Assembly (NCBI GenBank): GCA_947085205.1
Contig: CAMTVO010000039.1
Span: 1 to 28,921, forward strand
Origin: an uncultured Nitrospiraceae bacterium
GTDB taxonomy: Bacteria; Nitrospirota; Thermodesulfovibrionia; Thermodesulfovibrionales; Dissulfurispiraceae
Direction of reading: 5' to 3'
Length of the DNA stretch: 28,921 nucleotides
Shown: one piece after another, positions 62 through 6,110 of the stretch
How the letters are laid out: the number at the start of each line of letters is the position of its first letter
How positions within the stretch are numbered: the stretch's first letter is position 1
Notes under the pieces: model-generated
Seen by the model: only the letters and a program-made list of their open reading frames with translations
Told to the model about the DNA's origin: nothing
The model's database searches: none
Translations under genes and position numbers: made by a program

Positions 62-62
62 T

Positions 63-1394
63 GTCGGACTCCGTGAACTCATGGACGCTGTGAAGAGCTA
101 TTCCCCTGAATGGGCATCAAAAGAGACAGATATTGATGCAAAACTGATAGTAGAGACAGCAAGGGAGATGGCGCGCAATAAGCCGTCAGTTGTAATACAC
201 CCCGGAAGGCATGCCGTATGGTATGGGGATGATACACAGAGGGAGCGTGCTATGGCAATACTCACAGCGCTCCTGGGCGCTTATGGAAGAAAGGGCGGTT
301 GCTATATTCCTACAGAAGCGGGACTGCCGGGATATAATTATAAAGTTCCGCCTCCAAAGCCTGAAAAACCAAAATTAGTTGGTTATCCTTATGGGGCAGA
401 TGCCACGACAACAGAGATAAGGAAGGCGACTCTCACTGGAAAACCATACGCTGTTAAGGGATGGTTTATTTATAGTTTGAATGTTCTGAAAAGCCTTCCA
501 GCGCCGCAGGAGACAATTGATGCTATTCGCAAACTTGATCTAATGGTAGCATGCGATGTCCTGCCTTTTGAGGTTGTTGAGTGGGCAGATGTAGTTCTGC
601 CTGAGTGCACATATCTTGAGAGATACGATGACTTGAAAGTAGGAAAAGGAAAGGCAATGGCAGTAGGTTTAAGACAACCGGTTGTTCAACCAATGTTTGA
701 GAGCCGTCCTGCATGGCAGATAGTGAGGGACCTTGGAAGCAAGCTTGGACTTCATGAATATTTCCCATGGAAGAATATAGAAGAGTACCTTCAGCACAGA
801 CTTGACAACAGAAATATTCCTCTAAAGGCGCTTAAAGGAAAAGGCACAATAGTCTTTCAGGATACCGCTGCCCCATATATAACGGCAGAAAAAGAACCTG
901 CTTTTAACACAGATTCAGGCAAGATAGAACTCTATTCCCAATCGTTGAAAGAAAATGGTTTTAACCCAGTGCCAAAATATAAAAAGCACGCTACGCCGCC
1001 GGAGGGTCATTTCCGTTTAATTTATGGAAGAAGTCCTTTGCATAGTTTTGGAAGGACTGCAAATAACCAGAGACTCCATGAGCTTGTAAGCGAAAATGAA
1101 CTCTGGATAAACACAAAGAAGGCGGCTGCACTTGGGCTTAAAAATAGAGAGTATGTTGTCCTTGTGAATCAGGATGGGGCAAAGTCTAATAAGATAAAAC
1201 TCAAAGTGACAGAGAGAATAAGAGAGGATTGTGTCTATATGGTTCACGGTTTTGGCCATAATTCAAAAGAAACAAAAAAGGCATATAAAAGAGGCGCTGA
1301 CGATGCATCTTTGATGACACGGTATGCAGTTGACCCTATAATGGGCGGGACAGGGATGAGAGTGAACTTTGTGAAGATTGTAAAGGAGGTGTAG
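63..1394 (+). CDS. psrA: Polysulfide/thiosulfate reductase catalytic molybdopterin subunit (PsrA/PhsA-type), 5'-truncated
   Basis: DMSO-reductase-family C-terminal half: ADVVLPECTYLERYD motif, SGKIELYS, C-terminal dinucleotide-binding domain (HSFGRTANN...VYMVHGFGH). The frame is open back to the adapter (VGLREL), so ATG 81 is internal. Followed by 4Fe-4S and NrfD subunits. Psr versus Phs cannot be resolved. Confidence 0.85.
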   Translation, partial: VGLRELMDAVKSYSPEWASKETDIDAKLIVETAREMARNKPSVVIHPGRHAVWYGDDTQRERAMAILTALLGAYGRKGGCYIPTEAGLPGYNYKVPPPKPEKPKLVGYPYGADATTTEIRKATLTGKPYAVKGWFIYSLNVLKSLPAPQETIDAIRKLDLMVACDVLPFEVVEWADVVLPECTYLERYDDLKVGKGKAMAVGLRQPVVQPMFESRPAWQIVRDLGSKLGLHEYFPWKNIEEYLQHRLDNRNIPLKALKGKGTIVFQDTAAPYITAEKEPAFNTDSGKIELYSQSLKENGFNPVPKYKKHATPPEGHFRLIYGRSPLHSFGRTANNQRLHELVSENELWINTKKAAALGLKNREYVVLVNQDGAKSNKIKLKVTERIREDCVYMVHGFGHNSKETKKAYKRGADDASLMTRYAVDPIMGGTGMRVNFVKIVKEV

Positions 1395-1395
1395 T

Positions 1396-1932
1396 ATGCC
1401 GCGGTATGCAATGGTTATAGATAGAAAAAGATGCATCGGCTGTATGGCATGTGTAACAGCATGTAAAGCTGAGAACAATATAGCAGAAGAACTATACAGA
1501 ACAAGGGTTATTGAGATAGTTGAAGGCGCTTTTCCTAACTTCCGGATGGAACTGAGACCTGAACTCTGCAATCACTGTGAAAATGCGCCATGTGTGAGCA
1601 GTTGTCCAACAGGCGCATCGCATAAGAGAAAAGACGGTATAGTAATGGTGCATAAAAATAGATGTGTAGGTTGCAAGGCGTGCTTAGCAGCGTGTCCCTA
1701 TGATGCAAGGTTTATAGATACAACAAGCGGCGCAGCCGATAAATGCACCTTCTGCGAACACCGGATTAAAGACGGCAAGGAGCCTGCCTGCGTTACTACA
1801 TGTCTTGGCAAATCAAGAATATTTGGAGATCTTGATGACCCAAAGAGCATTGTTAAAAAAATGCTGGCAGAAAATCGGACGGAGGTGCCGATTAAGAAGG
1901 CAAACACAAGACCGAGGGTGTTTTACTTATAA
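1396..1932 (+). CDS. psrB: 4x[4Fe-4S] electron-transfer subunit (PsrB/PhsB/NrfC-type)
   Basis: CIGCMACVTAC, CNHCENAPCVSSCP, CVGCKACLAACP, KCTFC...CVTTC; AAGGAGGT SD; starts 1 nt after the psrA stop. Confidence 0.88.
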   Translation: MPRYAMVIDRKRCIGCMACVTACKAENNIAEELYRTRVIEIVEGAFPNFRMELRPELCNHCENAPCVSSCPTGASHKRKDGIVMVHKNRCVGCKACLAACPYDARFIDTTSGAADKCTFCEHRIKDGKEPACVTTCLGKSRIFGDLDDPKSIVKKMLAENRTEVPIKKANTRPRVFYL

Positions 1933-1956
1933 AAAAGTAAGGTTGGGGGAGAAGAC

Positions 1957-2898
1957 ATGCAAGAGATTACAATAACAGGTATTAATAGTATCACATATCC
2001 ACGCCTTGAAGTGTGGGACTGGCTTATTGCCATGTATCTCTTTCTTGGAGGCATGGCAGCAGGTCTTATGGTCTTGAGCGCTGTTTCCCAGTTTCGCGCA
2101 AAAGGAGCGGAATTGCCGAAAAGCAGCTACATTGGTCCTATAATGGCGCCTTTCATTCTTGCCATAGCCATGGTGTTTGTCTTTTTTGATTTATCAAAAA
2201 AGCTGAGCGCCTTCTGGTTTTATCTGAGTTTTAATGTCACCTCGCCTATGTCATGGGTTGGATGGACGGTTGGAGTATCAATCGTTATGAGCGCACTATG
2301 GGCATTGGCATCGCTTCCTGATAAAACGGGTGCGAAGCTGAAACTAACGATACTCAACAAACTATCTACAATAAGAAAGCCGTTAGCAGGAATAAATCTT
2401 ACATTAGGTGTAATGGTTGGGATAGGAACAGGGGTGTTGTTAAGCTCTTTTGTTGCAAGACCGCTCTGGAATTCACCCGTGCTTCCCATACTCTTTTTAG
2501 TGTCAGGTATTTCAACAGGCGCAGCGCTTCTTATACTCATAGAGAAAGATACAGAGGAAAGCCTGTTCTTTAAAAAGACAGATATAGCTCTAATAGCCGC
2601 GGAGATTGTATTAATTGCCTTATTCTTCTATGGGCACTTCACATCTACTGCGTCGCATGTTGAGGCAATAATGCCGTTCTTCAAAGGGGGTTACTATTTT
2701 CCGTTCTGGATAGCCACTCTTATTCTTGCTATAGCGCTGCCACTAGCTATCATCCTCGAGGCAGCAGAGGTAGCAGGTAGAGTAAGATTAAGAATACATC
2801 TAAGCGCATGGCTTGTTCTTGCGGCTGGTTTGATATTGCGATTATCTATAGTTTATGCCGGTCAGTTAAGCAGCATAAAACCTTTAGCAGGGTTTTAA
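1957..2898 (+). CDS. psrC: NrfD/PsrC-family membrane anchor (quinol-interacting) subunit
   Basis: W-x-W-x-IAMYLFLGG, DL...SPMSW and RPLWNSPVLP motifs; about 8 hydrophobic segments. Confidence 0.88.
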   Translation: MQEITITGINSITYPRLEVWDWLIAMYLFLGGMAAGLMVLSAVSQFRAKGAELPKSSYIGPIMAPFILAIAMVFVFFDLSKKLSAFWFYLSFNVTSPMSWVGWTVGVSIVMSALWALASLPDKTGAKLKLTILNKLSTIRKPLAGINLTLGVMVGIGTGVLLSSFVARPLWNSPVLPILFLVSGISTGAALLILIEKDTEESLFFKKTDIALIAAEIVLIALFFYGHFTSTASHVEAIMPFFKGGYYFPFWIATLILAIALPLAIILEAAEVAGRVRLRIHLSAWLVLAAGLILRLSIVYAGQLSSIKPLAGF

Positions 2899-2922
2899 TA
2901 TTTTAATAACAGGAGGCAGCAT

Positions 2923-3339
2923 ATGATTATGAAAGGAAGTAGTTTAAAAGGGAGTGGTTTGATAGTTATATTTTTGTTAACGTTGTTTTTATTACAGCCT
3001 GTCCTTGTCGATGCCCAATTCGACAAGGAAGGTTTGGAAAGTTTGATAACGAGAACTAACAAGAGGCGTGATACGGCTGAGAAGGTTGCAGTCTTTAAGG
3101 GGATAATGGCAAACCATTACTATATAAGCGCCTCTGTAGTGGATGAGATACTAAAGGATCTTCCCCCCGGCGAAGCGCTTGCGGCGGTATCTATCTCATC
3201 TCTTTCTAAAAAAGATGCACAAGAGATAGCGAAAATGAAAAAGGCAGGAGAAGATTGGCCGCAGATAGCTGAAAAAAACGGTATAACCTTGAAGGATGTA
3301 ATCAGGGATATACGGAAATTTCAGAGAACCTCAGGCTGA
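2923..3339 (+). CDS. Secreted helical hypothetical protein; candidate C-terminal selenoprotein (extends to 3342 if UGA is read as Sec)
   Basis: AGGAGG SD at 2911-2916; signal peptide ending VDA; GEDWPQIAEKNGI motif; ends RTSG-TGA-TAA followed by a SECIS-like hairpin. Confidence 0.8.
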   Translation: MIMKGSSLKGSGLIVIFLLTLFLLQPVLVDAQFDKEGLESLITRTNKRRDTAEKVAVFKGIMANHYYISASVVDEILKDLPPGEALAAVSISSLSKKDAQEIAKMKKAGEDWPQIAEKNGITLKDVIRDIRKFQRTSG

Positions 3340-3346
3340 TAAATCC

Positions 3347-3370
3347 TCTCCTCTGCTGTATGCAGAGAGA
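3347..3370 (+). promoter_or_regulatory. Putative bacterial SECIS element
   Basis: Stem CTCTGC/GCAGAG, loop UGUAU (G at position 2 followed by U), bulged C3350, lower stem TCT/AGA; the loop begins 17 nt after UGA 3337-3339; no U-tract. Confidence 0.55.
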
Positions 3371-3446
3371 CATTGCTGTGAGTTTGAAGATGTTGTGTTC
3401 TAATATTAAGAATATTCTAAACTTTAAAAAACAACAGGAGGAGAAT

Positions 3447-4769
3447 ATGGGAATATTTGTAAGAACCCTTTTTGTTTTAATGGTTTTATTGCTTCCCCTG
3501 CCACTTTTAGCACAGCAGGCAAAGCCAACACTTGCGCCATTATGCGCAGGATGTCATAAGCCCGAGCCAAACATGCTCATGGGACTTCTGGACAACATCT
3601 CCCTGAAAGGAGACATAATCCAGCTTGATTTGACCACCCATAAGGAGATTGTTAAGTTTACCGCTTCCACGAAGCTCAAGGATGTGAACTCCTTTGAGGA
3701 GATGCGGCAATTCAGGGGCAGGGCATTCACCATCTATTACACAGAGAAGAAGGGCGAAAAGACAGCCACATCCATTGCCAGGTTTGACATCCTTCGTACC
3801 TTAAAGCCAGAGGATAAGCTCACAAAAGATGATTTTAAAAAGCTCATGGCAGAAAGGAAAGACCTTGTGATTGTGGACTCAAGACCTGCGCCCAGGTATG
3901 AAGAAGGACACATTCCATGGGCAATAGTTATCCCCGCAGCAGTGTTGGAAAAGCAGACAGACAAACTGCCAAAGGAAAAGGACAGGCTTCTGGTCTTTTA
4001 TTGTGTGGGTGGCTGCTCAAGCCCTATTGCTGCTGTTAAGGCAAAGAGTCTTGGATATACAAATGTGAAGATTTATATTGGTGGAATGCCTGATTGGGTG
4101 CAGACGGAATACACCCATACAACACCGAAGTGGCTGAAAGATGCTATTGAAAAGGATATCCCCCACATTCTTATAGACACCAGTTCAAAAGACATAGCCC
4201 ACAGGGGACACATAAAGGGTGCCATATCCACCACCCCTGATGAACTGGATAAGATGAAGGAACAATTCCCAAAGGACAGGATGGCGCCAATTGTTCTTTA
4301 TGGAGATAAGGGTGTGGAGATGGCACAGAAGATAATCGGCTGGGGATATAGAGGCGTAAGGATACTGCCCATAACCTATGATGCATGGAAGGCAGCAGGC
4401 AACCCTATTGCCACAGGGCATACAAAGACGACAATTGTGTATGTGCCGAAACCAAAGCCAGGCACCATCCCCCATGCTGAATTCAGGAAGATGGCTGCCG
4501 TACTGCCACCTGACACTGTCATCATAGATGTGCGGAATGCTGACGAATATGCCGCAGGACATGTGAAGGGCGCCATGAATATACCACTGGATGAGCTAAA
4601 CGAGAGATACACAGAGATACCAAAAGGCAAGAGGGTTATCCTTTACTGCGACAGGGGATTGCGAGCAGAAATGGGGTATCACATTCTGGCTGAAAAGGGC
4701 TTTAATGTTAGCTGCCTTGATGCCACCGTAAAGGCAGAAAAAGACGGGACCTTCACCATAGTGGAATAA
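3447..4769 (+). CDS. Secreted multi-rhodanese (sulfurtransferase) protein with N-terminal CxxCH heme-c motif
   Basis: Start moved to ATG 3447 (CAGGAGGAG SD); signal peptide ending LLA-QQ; CAGCH at 3543-3557; three rhodanese repeats (VDSRP..YEEGHIPWA..FYCVGGC; DTS..GHIKGA..LYGD; DVRNADEYAAGHVKGA..LYCDRGLRA). Confidence 0.88.
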   Translation: MGIFVRTLFVLMVLLLPLPLLAQQAKPTLAPLCAGCHKPEPNMLMGLLDNISLKGDIIQLDLTTHKEIVKFTASTKLKDVNSFEEMRQFRGRAFTIYYTEKKGEKTATSIARFDILRTLKPEDKLTKDDFKKLMAERKDLVIVDSRPAPRYEEGHIPWAIVIPAAVLEKQTDKLPKEKDRLLVFYCVGGCSSPIAAVKAKSLGYTNVKIYIGGMPDWVQTEYTHTTPKWLKDAIEKDIPHILIDTSSKDIAHRGHIKGAISTTPDELDKMKEQFPKDRMAPIVLYGDKGVEMAQKIIGWGYRGVRILPITYDAWKAAGNPIATGHTKTTIVYVPKPKPGTIPHAEFRKMAAVLPPDTVIIDVRNADEYAAGHVKGAMNIPLDELNERYTEIPKGKRVILYCDRGLRAEMGYHILAEKGFNVSCLDATVKAEKDGTFTIVE

Positions 4770-4772
4770 GAC

Positions 4773-6110
4773 TTACATAGGCGACCAGCTTGAGCTGGTC
4801 GCCTTAAATCCTTTCAGCGTTATTCTTATCTGTCCCTCTCCATTAATCCTCATCAAATATATCCCTTTTGTGCCGTCCCTGTCAGATGTAAAGGCTATAT
4901 ATCTTCCATCAGGGGAAAAGGAAGGTTCTTCGTTATTTCCTTTATCCGTTAATTGGCTTAACCCTGTGCCGTCGGGTTTCATCATGAGAATCTGGTTCTT
5001 TGCGCCGAGCATCCTCACAAATACAATCCTATCTCCTTTTGGAGACCATACAGGCGATGTATTATAAGAGCCTTCAAAGGTGAGCCTCCTTATGCCGTTG
5101 CCTTCTTTATCAGAAATATATATCTGCGGGCTTCCCGACCTATTGGAGACGAACAAAATATAATTTCCGTCAGGAGAAACAGATGGAGATACATCAATCC
5201 ACGGTGAAGATATGAGTTTCCACCCTTTCATGCTCGAAACATCTCCAACATGGATATTCGACTTGCCATCCTTTGAAGATGAAAATACAAACTCCTTATT
5301 ATTCGGGAAAAAATTCCCTGCCATATTCAGTCCGCTCAGTCTGACAATGTTTTTTTCCCTCATGGTATTCATATCCAGCAGATAGATATCCCAGCTTCGG
5401 TTCCTCTCTGCCGAATAAATAATCTTCGTCCCATCAGAAGACCAGCGCGGAGATAGCAATATGCCCCCGGTTACACCAAGCCCTTGCATGCGGTGGCCGT
5501 CCCAATCCATTAAATAAAGTTCTTTTTTGCCCTCCCTTTCTCCCACAAATGCTATCCGCGTCCTGAATATTCCGTTCTGCCCTGTAAGGATTTTATAGAT
5601 GTCATTTGCTATCGAGTGTGAAAGCGGTCTCGATAATTCCGCAGCGCCTGAATATTCCTTGCTCAATACTTCCTTTGAGGCAGAGACATCATAAACAGAA
5701 ACAGTGACACTTAAATCTCTGCCCTTTACAACCCTGCCTTTTACCACAAGCTCTACGCCGAGTCCTTTCCAGTTATTGGGATTAAAAGGCTGCTCCGGCC
5801 TTTCTATATGTGCGGCCTCGTCAATGCAGTCAAAAAGGCCTGTAAACGTCAGATCGTCCTTTACTATGTCCGATATCTCTTTCCCGTCTGTAAAGACCTG
5901 AACGGCAATAGGAAGCCTTTTAACGCCTGGAGATGTTATGTCGATATAAACCTTTTCAGCATGAGAAGTGAAAAGTGAAAAGTGAAAAGTGAGAAGGAAA
6001 AGAATAAAAGATAAAAAAATAAGAAGATGCGAAGCTAATCGGTTATGATTTTTTTTCTCATTTTTCCACCTTCTTGTCTTTTTATCTTCTGACTTCTGAC
6101 TTGCCTTCAT
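4773..6110 (-). CDS. tolB: Tol-Pal beta-propeller protein TolB
   Basis: TolB N-domain (LPIAV...F) plus PD40 repeats (SPRWSSDG, SPSVSPDG, SPVWSPKG, EPSFSPDG); downstream of tolQRA with an ATGA overlap. Confidence 0.93.
   Translation of the reverse strand: MKASQKSEDKKTRRWKNEKKNHNRLASHLLIFLSFILFLLTFHFSLFTSHAEKVYIDITSPGVKRLPIAVQVFTDGKEISDIVKDDLTFTGLFDCIDEAAHIERPEQPFNPNNWKGLGVELVVKGRVVKGRDLSVTVSVYDVSASKEVLSKEYSGAAELSRPLSHSIANDIYKILTGQNGIFRTRIAFVGEREGKKELYLMDWDGHRMQGLGVTGGILLSPRWSSDGTKIIYSAERNRSWDIYLLDMNTMREKNIVRLSGLNMAGNFFPNNKEFVFSSSKDGKSNIHVGDVSSMKGWKLISSPWIDVSPSVSPDGNYILFVSNRSGSPQIYISDKEGNGIRRLTFEGSYNTSPVWSPKGDRIVFVRMLGAKNQILMMKPDGTGLSQLTDKGNNEEPSFSPDGRYIAFTSDRDGTKGIYLMRINGEGQIRITLKGFKATSSSWSPM
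5962..6103. repeat. Heptamer array (TGARAAG)x5 plus an inverted pair of degenerate 8/7-mer arrays inside the tolB 5' end
   Basis: TGAGAAG TGAAAAG TGAAAAG TGAAAAG TGAGAAG at 5962-5996; AAGATAAA-type units at ~6000-6033 face TCTTTTTA/CTTCTGA units at ~6053-6103. Confidence 0.8.

Follow-up and report, generated by a model that had tools for sequence, protein, structure and literature searches.

A likely new selenoprotein family with selenocysteine at or next to its C terminus, encoded among sulfur-transfer genes in Nitrospirota

Among described selenoproteins, SaoC (NF040734), a Cys-Cys-COOH (seleno)protein (bioRxiv 10.1101/2022.07.06.499078), resembles the protein encoded in the 28,921-nucleotide stretch analyzed here (the window) in being small, in having a signal peptide, a last-residue selenocysteine (Sec), a UGA followed by a second stop, and a G-loop SECIS element in the untranslated region, and in lying near transporters. 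The SaoC traits found in the window protein include the signal peptide, judged by hydropathy only, and the terminal Sec with a double stop. However, SaoC ends in CC or CU, with Sec in 3 of 52, whereas the family of the window protein has a single Cys or Sec after Gly, with Sec in 22 of 41, usually adds one more residue, and lies in Nitrospirota sulfur-transfer clusters; the SaoC model matched neither the window protein at E 0.1 nor 15 homologues at E 0.05. KCU-star/DUF466 proteins (NF033934) likewise have a C-terminal Sec and are encoded beside a transporter (PMC13188914 Table 1). They end in Lys-Cys-Sec, however, and have no sequence match to the window family.

SoxY is a beta-sandwich protein with a long Gly-rich Cys arm, and DsrC is a cytoplasmic protein with two Cys. 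Both appear to resemble the window family in placing a reactive Cys or Sec at the C terminus after Gly, and SoxY is also periplasmic (the role of SoxYZ is treated in a section of PMC11582611 as well). Unlike them, the window family is all-helical in predicted models, with a tail of 2 to 3 residues and no sox neighbors; no SoxY or DsrC Pfam match was obtained for the window protein or 37 aligned members, and the DsrC fold is not among the fold-search matches listed, where the best Z of 6.3 belongs to an unrelated protein. On the side of whole systems, Sud of Wolinella succinogenes is presented in the relevant passage of PMC2628731 as a periplasmic polysulfide-binding helper of PsrABC, and passages of PMC13047784, PMC13490349, and PMC11582611 describe the YTD cluster and SoxT/YeeE modules, in which YeeE occurs with DsrE-like and sulfur transfer proteins in anaerobic sulfur metabolizers. 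The cluster in which our family usually occurs differs from these in adding an exported rhodanese, the selenoprotein, an MMPL transporter, a LolA-like protein, and an outer-membrane-type protein, and TusA was not seen in it.

The source genome (G000, 89.7% complete, dsrA present) carries the selenoprotein gene on contig C39, where we assign the following features.

62..1394, plus strand: PsrA/PhsA-like molybdoenzyme gene, 3' part only, cut by the contig start (neighboring gene)
1396..1932, plus strand: PsrB-like 4Fe-4S subunit (neighboring gene)
1957..2898, plus strand: NrfD/PsrC membrane anchor (neighboring gene)
2911..2916, plus strand: Shine-Dalgarno-like AGGAGG of the selenoprotein gene (from sequence)
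2923..3342, plus strand: selenoprotein gene CDS read through UGA, 139 aa, ending FQRTSG-U, stop TAA (from homologues)
2923..3015, plus strand: predicted signal peptide, residues 1 to 31, cleavage presumably after VDA (hydrophobic stretch)
3016..3336, plus strand: mature domain, all-helical with seven predicted helices; no match to a known family or fold (models and searches)
3337..3339, plus strand: UGA codon, in all likelihood Sec; its position is Cys in P0003, P0007, and 15 of 19 Cys-type copies
3340..3342, plus strand: true stop TAA (from sequence)
3347..3370, plus strand: bacterial SECIS-type hairpin in the 3' untranslated region, with a 6-bp upper stem, a UGUAU loop, and a context-dependent lower stem
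3447..4769, plus strand: predicted exported three-domain rhodanese with one CxxCH motif, Cys-type, the likely partner (neighboring gene)

Re-examination confirmed what the first-pass annotation had observed, namely, an open reading frame (ORF) at 2923-3339 of 138 aa without Cys that ends FQRTSG-TGA-TAA and has a hairpin whose loop begins 17 nt after the UGA; the gene lies 24 nt downstream of the NrfD/PsrC-type gene in the same direction. The sequence 3240-3393 was matched without differing letters by one short contig, assembled from sequencing done in another study (depth 2.6), and no RNA run is among the sequencing runs listed as holding the locus sequence. Positions 1-61 of the window have the appearance of an indexed sequencing adapter, and the psrA-like gene begins abruptly behind them; contig C31 opens with 40 bases near-identical to the window start. 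This adapter-like start is an assembly artefact, and the 5' half of psrA is missing. Another psrA-like gene, at C46:2-2177 on the minus strand, is 87% identical in DNA to window positions 62-1380, and the two are either recent paralogues or derived from two strains in one bin. Further downstream, the rhodanese ORF at its longest would begin with the ATG at 3360, inside the SECIS loop, and a gene call of that excess length would conceal the hairpin; the true start is probably 3447, which was picked for its Shine-Dalgarno sequence and is followed by a signal peptide.

The hairpin has an upper stem of CTCTGC (3351-3356) and GCAGAG (3362-3367) closing the loop TGTAT (3357-3361), a lower stem (3347-3349/3368-3370), and one of two Cs (3350 or 3351) bulged, with an energy of -11.8 kcal/mol as a whole. 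Across three sequence contexts, the five inner pairs had probabilities of 0.98 to 1.0, and lower-stem pairing varied with context from 0.06 to 0.95. No terminator-like site was found on the plus strand within 1800-5000, and an Rfam search of 2800-3600 gave five matches, all at chance level. The energy of the 60-nt hairpin region is unremarkable (z -0.76; 40 of 200 shuffles fold equally well), so the hairpin gains significance only from its position, its loop, and its homologues. The published bSECIS model (PMC13188914, section 5) requires a loop of 3 to 9 nt located 16 to 37 nt after the UGA with G in its first two positions, and a stem of 4 to 16 bp at -7.5 kcal/mol or below. Under these criteria, applied by a purpose-written script rather than bSECISearch, the window hairpin passes (17 nt, UGUAU, 6 bp, -8.5). 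Among 373 TGA-ending ORFs of at least 200 aa in the genome, 12 pass as background, two of them at Sec-type motifs, and the passes include what we take, from their motifs, to be Sec-type sites in formate dehydrogenase and YeeE. Under tighter limits, chosen post hoc with the family already known, 3 of 232 TGA-ending ORFs pass; a tandem stop follows 41 of these 232, among which the selenoprotein gene alone passes. As a separate matter, a changed code with UGA read as Trp or Gly was ruled out, as TGA terminates 232 of the 818 ORFs scored and the sole UCA-anticodon tRNA found is tRNA-Sec.

A profile search was positive in 34 of 390 class genomes, the source genome included, and further members came from one more genome of the phylum, one Desulfobulbaceae MAG, and one metagenome contig, the single locus obtained from a metagenome scan that covered 19 of 64 parts. 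This gave 41 gene copies with DNA, at 39 loci, and the named relatives are Nitrospirota and Thermodesulfovibrionales MAGs; among 401 sampled genomes of the phylum of G656, the family was found in G656 alone. These counts exclude P0006 and P0015, in which homology breaks off mid-protein, and weak matches without the C-terminal motif (L037-L056, P0019-P0022, P0024, P0026, and P0027). No longer or fused forms appeared among 7995 candidates scored, which is weak evidence.

Every one of the 41 copies has a single C-terminal Cys or Sec. The 22 that lack a C-terminal Cys all end in Gly-TGA at one aligned position, with the Gly five and the TGA six residues after a conserved Phe. In the 19 Cys-type copies, the Cys falls exactly at the TGA position in 15 and one residue earlier in 4, and the stop codons are mixed (TAA 7, TAG 6, TGA 6). 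Of 36 protein-only records, which partly overlap the DNA loci, 25 end at Gly, and in the rest the Cys is at the TGA position (7) or one residue earlier (4). P0003, 78 to 82% identical to the window protein, ends SG-C, and together with P0007 and the 15 Cys-type copies it supplies the Cys variants that the first-pass annotation had proposed to look for at the UGA position. The public records P0001 and P0029 end at G, which bears out the expectation that annotation would stop at the UGA; a passage in the SaoC report states that PGAP cannot predict C-terminal Sec (bioRxiv 10.1101/2022.07.06.499078).

The codon after the UGA provides a further line of evidence. In the 21 other Sec-type copies it is GAG (9), GAA (3), GAC (7), CAG (1), or CAA (1), that is, always E, D, or Q with synonymous changes, and it is followed in all 21 by a variable stop (TAA 14, TGA 5, TAG 2), as expected if the UGA is translated. 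Homology past the UGA can extend over no more than one residue in these 21 copies, and the window copy has none. Since the other 21 add E, D, or Q before the stop, Sec is usually penultimate and is terminal only in the window copy; the first-pass description of Sec as the last residue therefore holds for the window copy but not as a trait of the family. In L062 and L070, a Sec-type and a Cys-type copy occur in the same operon, flanking YeeE on either side.

The hairpin follows the Sec-type copies. The bSECIS model passes 18 of 22 Sec-type versus 0 of 19 Cys-type copies, and relaxing the energy to -5 kcal/mol gives 21 of 22 versus 1 of 19. Loops begin 16 to 20 nt after the UGA and the four loop-proximal pairs are intact in 22 of 22, by a script that demanded a pyrimidine-G loop start, although unconstrained folding gives the same hairpins in most rows. 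A stem alignment was built from the 18 rows whose loop is 5 nt long; the other four, with a 4-nt loop, entered only the loop-position analysis. In this alignment, 97.2% of cells are paired and five of six pairs vary on both sides; 0 of 500 shuffles reach this level of pairing, and slid controls come to 63% at most. The rows were anchored on the predicted loop because a free MAFFT alignment misplaced the window's hairpin; such anchoring leans toward structure, and part of the signal consists of changes in G-run length. In L093, which among homologues with DNA is the closest, the loop is UGGAC and a pair that is U-A in the window is C-G. Thus, the covarying hairpin that the first-pass annotation had called for was found, with stem pairs that change on both sides and a hairpin lost from the 19 Cys-type copies, and its placement of a SECIS element in the 3' untranslated region is upheld by the bSECIS test and the homologue hairpins.

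It could be argued that there is no Sec at all and that a tandem stop and an mRNA-stability hairpin follow a protein ending at Gly, as the ordinary hairpin energy and the frequency of tandem stops (41 of 232) would allow. However, this fails to explain the TGA in 22 of 22 copies, the aligned Cys, and the conserved E/D/Q codon after the UGA, and the hairpin is missing from 19 of 19 Cys-type copies although their operons are the same; we regard it as the most improbable of the readings considered here. The comparative evidence is strong, and the UGA is almost certainly read as Sec in a SelB-dependent manner.

A quick tree with long branches, calculated without the tail, places the Cys forms P0003 and P0007 within the starred clade of the window protein. 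At least three Sec/Cys changes are required, and a single Sec clade is rejected (p-AU 0.001). Nineteen of the 22 Sec copies form one clade, and on starred branches there is only one independent pair; Fisher p values overstate the association because the copies are kin. The check for sel genes was positive, as the source genome has selA, selB, tRNA-Sec, and a selD with an in-frame TGA (Sec-type). Among host genomes, selA is present in 32 of 35 and selB in 33 of 35, and the four with a gap have tRNA-Sec and a Sec-type selD; G656 gave no selA or selB match although tRNA-Sec and a Sec-type selD are present. Since selA is common in the class (191 of 201 genomes), the Sec machinery of the hosts is permissive rather than discriminating. 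Cys variants, a conserved hairpin, and sel genes, the absence of which the first-pass annotation had listed as grounds against Sec, were therefore all found. Two other loci in the source genome may be recorded here: C52:4307-4425 on the minus strand is another match (119 nt) that exceeds the gathering score of the tRNA-Sec model, uncalled by ARAGORN, and C38:33912-34910 on the plus strand is a YeeE/YedE gene with an in-frame TGA (GG-U-TVG) and a hairpin, a type of selenoprotein already known.

An N-terminal hydrophobic stretch (11-residue hydropathy of at least 2.0) is present in 39 of 40 members scored, and with the signal peptide assigned by hydropathy and by eye, not SignalP, the protein is predicted to be exported to the periplasm; the Desulfobulbaceae-type members look like lipoproteins by the same kind of prediction. 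AlphaFold2 gave confident all-helical models (pLDDT 89.6 and 93.8). For a Cys-type member of 115 residues, the model ends its last helix at residue 112, which leaves G-C-A free; overall, the last helix is predicted to run to within 1 to 3 residues of the end, with Sec on a tail of 2 to 3 residues, and no Cys occurs within the last 105 residues of any of the 22 Sec-type copies. The long flexible arm of the SoxY/DsrC type proposed in the first-pass annotation is at odds with these models.

Searches with the window protein and family members gave no match in Pfam, in NCBIfam (June 2026 release, including selenoprotein models such as TsoB and SQR_III_seleno), in PDB sequences (best E 0.027), or in PDB folds, where Foldseek with two models returned nothing at E 0.001 and the best Z scores, 5.7 and 6.3, are not meaningful for helical bundles; named Atlas clusters gave no usable match. 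A set of uncharacterized exported proteins, helical and sharing a W-G-x-I-A-K motif (Atlas clusters, L037-L056, and P0020), match the family with a profile probability of 94%, and TM scores between predicted models are 0.75 to 0.84, so one scaffold is probably shared. Unlike the family, these proteins have long Gly/Lys-rich tails and no Cys or Sec at the C terminus. Because such distant relatives without a terminal Cys are widespread, the family looks like a common scaffold plus one gained reactive residue. Of the 119 families tabulated in PMC13188914, a 2026 review, none has an NCBIfam or Pfam model, where one exists, that the family matches. It was not recognizable in that table, nor among the nine new families of deep-Sep as given in passages of PMC12013277. 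BSepDB, by the account in part of PMC13326102, compiles reported families only. We did not find the family described in the literature searched, although supplements (e.g., the BSepDB family table) or BSepDB itself could hold it; it is likely a new selenoprotein family, with a function that must be deduced from its surroundings.

Those surroundings differ from the window. None of the 38 other loci, viewed over roughly 8 kb of flanking sequence per side at most and where contigs allowed, contains PsrA or PsrC, and the most frequent genes are instead MMPL (32, often directly upstream), YeeE (32), a single-domain exported rhodanese with a conserved Cys (29), LolA-like (29), a 420-residue protein without Pfam match (25), SQR-like flavoprotein (18), DsrH (16), DsrE-like (15 to 16), and TauE (11); TusA family and sox genes are not among the recurring neighbors. 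The usual setting in Nitrospirota is thus an MMPL-selenoprotein-rhodanese-YeeE-LolA-like cluster with DsrE/DsrH/SQR-like genes. A rhodanese or YeeE gene is immediately adjacent in 34 of 39 copies scored, and L093 abuts a rhodanese domain. Of the other five, L067 and L072 keep MMPL and lack rhodanese and YeeE, L087 and L089 have the copy following a DUF3373 gene, and L073 has a rhodanese two genes away.

In its most extended form, seen at L057-L092, the cluster comprises ArsR, DsrE, DsrH, SQR-like, MMPL, the selenoprotein gene, rhodanese, a double-length YeeE (463 aa), LolA-like, a methyltransferase, the 420-aa protein, a binding protein, a sensor kinase, and a sigma-54 regulator, and we did not find it described in the literature searched. 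At ten loci (L058, L060, L061, L063, L066, L067, L079, L081, L082, and L092), the DsrE-like gene is split at a TGA within L-U-G-G-C, in 10 of 10; this is a selenoprotein of the known UxxC type. The source genome has the downstream end of the usual cluster at a contig edge (C16:119-5069), and its DsrE/DsrH genes lie at C62:10785-11785.

The first-pass annotation had assigned the protein to Psr/Phs as a dedicated subunit, with its Sec on a flexible arm that would bring sulfur or selenium to the Mo site. The close spacing behind psrC in the same direction would suit this, as would L073:3269-13934, a DMSO-reductase type II operon that contains a Cys-type copy along with a tandem-domain rhodanese (the alpha subunit ORF there ends at 508 aa, short of family length). 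However, the usual partners are rhodanese, YeeE, and MMPL, without PsrA or PsrC at any of the 38 other loci, and a tail of 2 to 3 residues is short for reaching a buried Mo center. Moreover, the second psrA-like gene has its own rhodanese upstream, and no second selenoprotein copy was found in the genome, although one could be missing from the assembly because the cluster end meets a contig edge and DsrE/DsrH lie elsewhere. We consider a dedicated Psr/Phs role highly unlikely.

The thread common to the Psr and the usual settings is a periplasmic rhodanese. Sud is itself a rhodanese, and its role suits the rhodanese at 3447-4769 better than the selenoprotein, which has no rhodanese fold. At 29 other loci of the three-domain rhodanese, neither the selenoprotein gene nor psrC lies within about 1.5 kb. 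A paralogous three-domain rhodanese at C46:2185-3550 on the minus strand, directly preceding the second psrA-like gene, has an in-frame TGA in its first active site (FYCGGPT-U) and a G-loop hairpin; the same is true of most of its homologues in the class (L115 and L118-L140), and the window rhodanese and its closest orthologues have CVGGC in place of the Sec site, some without the first Cys. Selenoproteins of the rhodanese type are already known.

With a probability of about 0.5, we read the protein, predicted to be exported and very likely ending Ser-Gly-Sec, as a one-site periplasmic sulfane carrier working with rhodanese, the sulfur-carrier role in itself being a reasonable inference from the gene neighborhood. 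SelB acting on the hairpin 17 nt downstream would insert Sec at the UGA, with TAA terminating, and the predicted signal peptide would direct the protein to the periplasm, where the predicted seven-helix scaffold would expose its only conserved reactive group, Sec or Cys, past the last helix. The adjacent periplasmic rhodanese may load or unload sulfane sulfur there as a persulfide or selenosulfide. In most genomes, the sulfur might then pass to the YeeE transporter and on to cytoplasmic DsrE/DsrH-type proteins, modeled on the periplasmic sulfane delivery to YeeE-like SoxT outlined in a section of PMC11582611. In the window, the gene would have joined a polysulfide/thiosulfate reductase operon and, with the three-domain rhodanese, might feed PsrABC in a Sud-like manner, for which the account of Sud with PsrABC in Wolinella in part of PMC2628731 is the model. 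This onward transfer, by either path, is the weakest step of the scheme. A complex prediction for the Cys-type member of L077 with its cognate rhodanese (alignments A7 and A8) scored 0.14 against a mark of 0.32 and counts neither way.

Other functions were weighed against the sulfane carrier. The constancy of MMPL, equal to that of YeeE (32 of 38 each) and often directly upstream, raises the possibility that the protein serves the MMPL transporter, the LolA-like protein, and outer-membrane proteins, e.g., as a periplasmic chaperone or acceptor for hydrophobic sulfur, instead of a rhodanese relay; the MMPL-selenoprotein-LolA-like arrangement of L067 without rhodanese or YeeE, and the position behind DUF3373 in L087 and L089, would fit such a role. 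We nevertheless find it unlikely, as the window copy and L093 lie beside rhodaneses with no MMPL nearby on their contigs; six loci lack MMPL, and several of these are short contigs.

A redox or thiol-exchange function, in which Sec would attack periplasmic S-S bonds and free HS- or short polysulfide, or form a diselenide dimer, is distinctly unlikely, since the thioredoxin fold was not matched and all 22 Sec-type copies lack a second (resolving) Cys. On its side, selenoproteins are mostly regarded as redox enzymes (PMC13188914, section 7), the Cys-type copy in L062 precedes CcdA-like and thioredoxin-like genes, and sulfane release by thiol oxidoreductases (SoxS, DsbA) near YeeE-like genes is proposed in a passage of PMC11582611. 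Very unlikely, in our judgment, is the binding of selenium or a metal(loid) for uptake or detoxification, as proposed for SaoC, which is likewise exported, with a terminal Sec, and near transporters. Three clusters do contain selD, at least 10 contain a Sec-type DsrE-like gene, and 13 of 38 loci have a phosphonate/selenate-type binding protein in the vicinity, but the family has no CC/CU pair, on which the SaoC metal proposal is based, and its neighbors are mostly sulfur transfer proteins.

Whatever its function, the family has practical consequences. Gene callers cut its proteins one or two residues short and thereby lose the sole conserved reactive residue. With Sec as the majority form and a SECIS element wholly outside the CDS, the family is a natural system in which SECIS rules, and UGA read-through beside a stop, can be tested cleanly; the gene is also a marker for a conserved sulfur-trafficking cluster among Nitrospirota that are mostly uncultured. 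The crossing of the outer membrane and periplasm by sulfur in such anaerobes is described as unresolved in a passage of PMC13490349, and envelope sulfur transport becomes testable in vitro with a soluble protein of 107 residues that occurs naturally in Cys and Sec forms. Tentatively, and with considerable doubt, we suggest that zero-valent sulfur may cross the envelope of Thermodesulfovibrio-class Nitrospirota by an undescribed route in which this family is the periplasmic carrier, holding sulfur as a selenosulfide on the terminal Sec; the parts of the route would be an outer-membrane protein, the LolA-like shuttle, MMPL, rhodanese, the Sec carrier, YeeE, and DsrE/DsrH. If this is true, the protein would amount to a SoxY counterpart that uses selenium and a new helical scaffold, redeployed in the source genome to feed polysulfide reductase.
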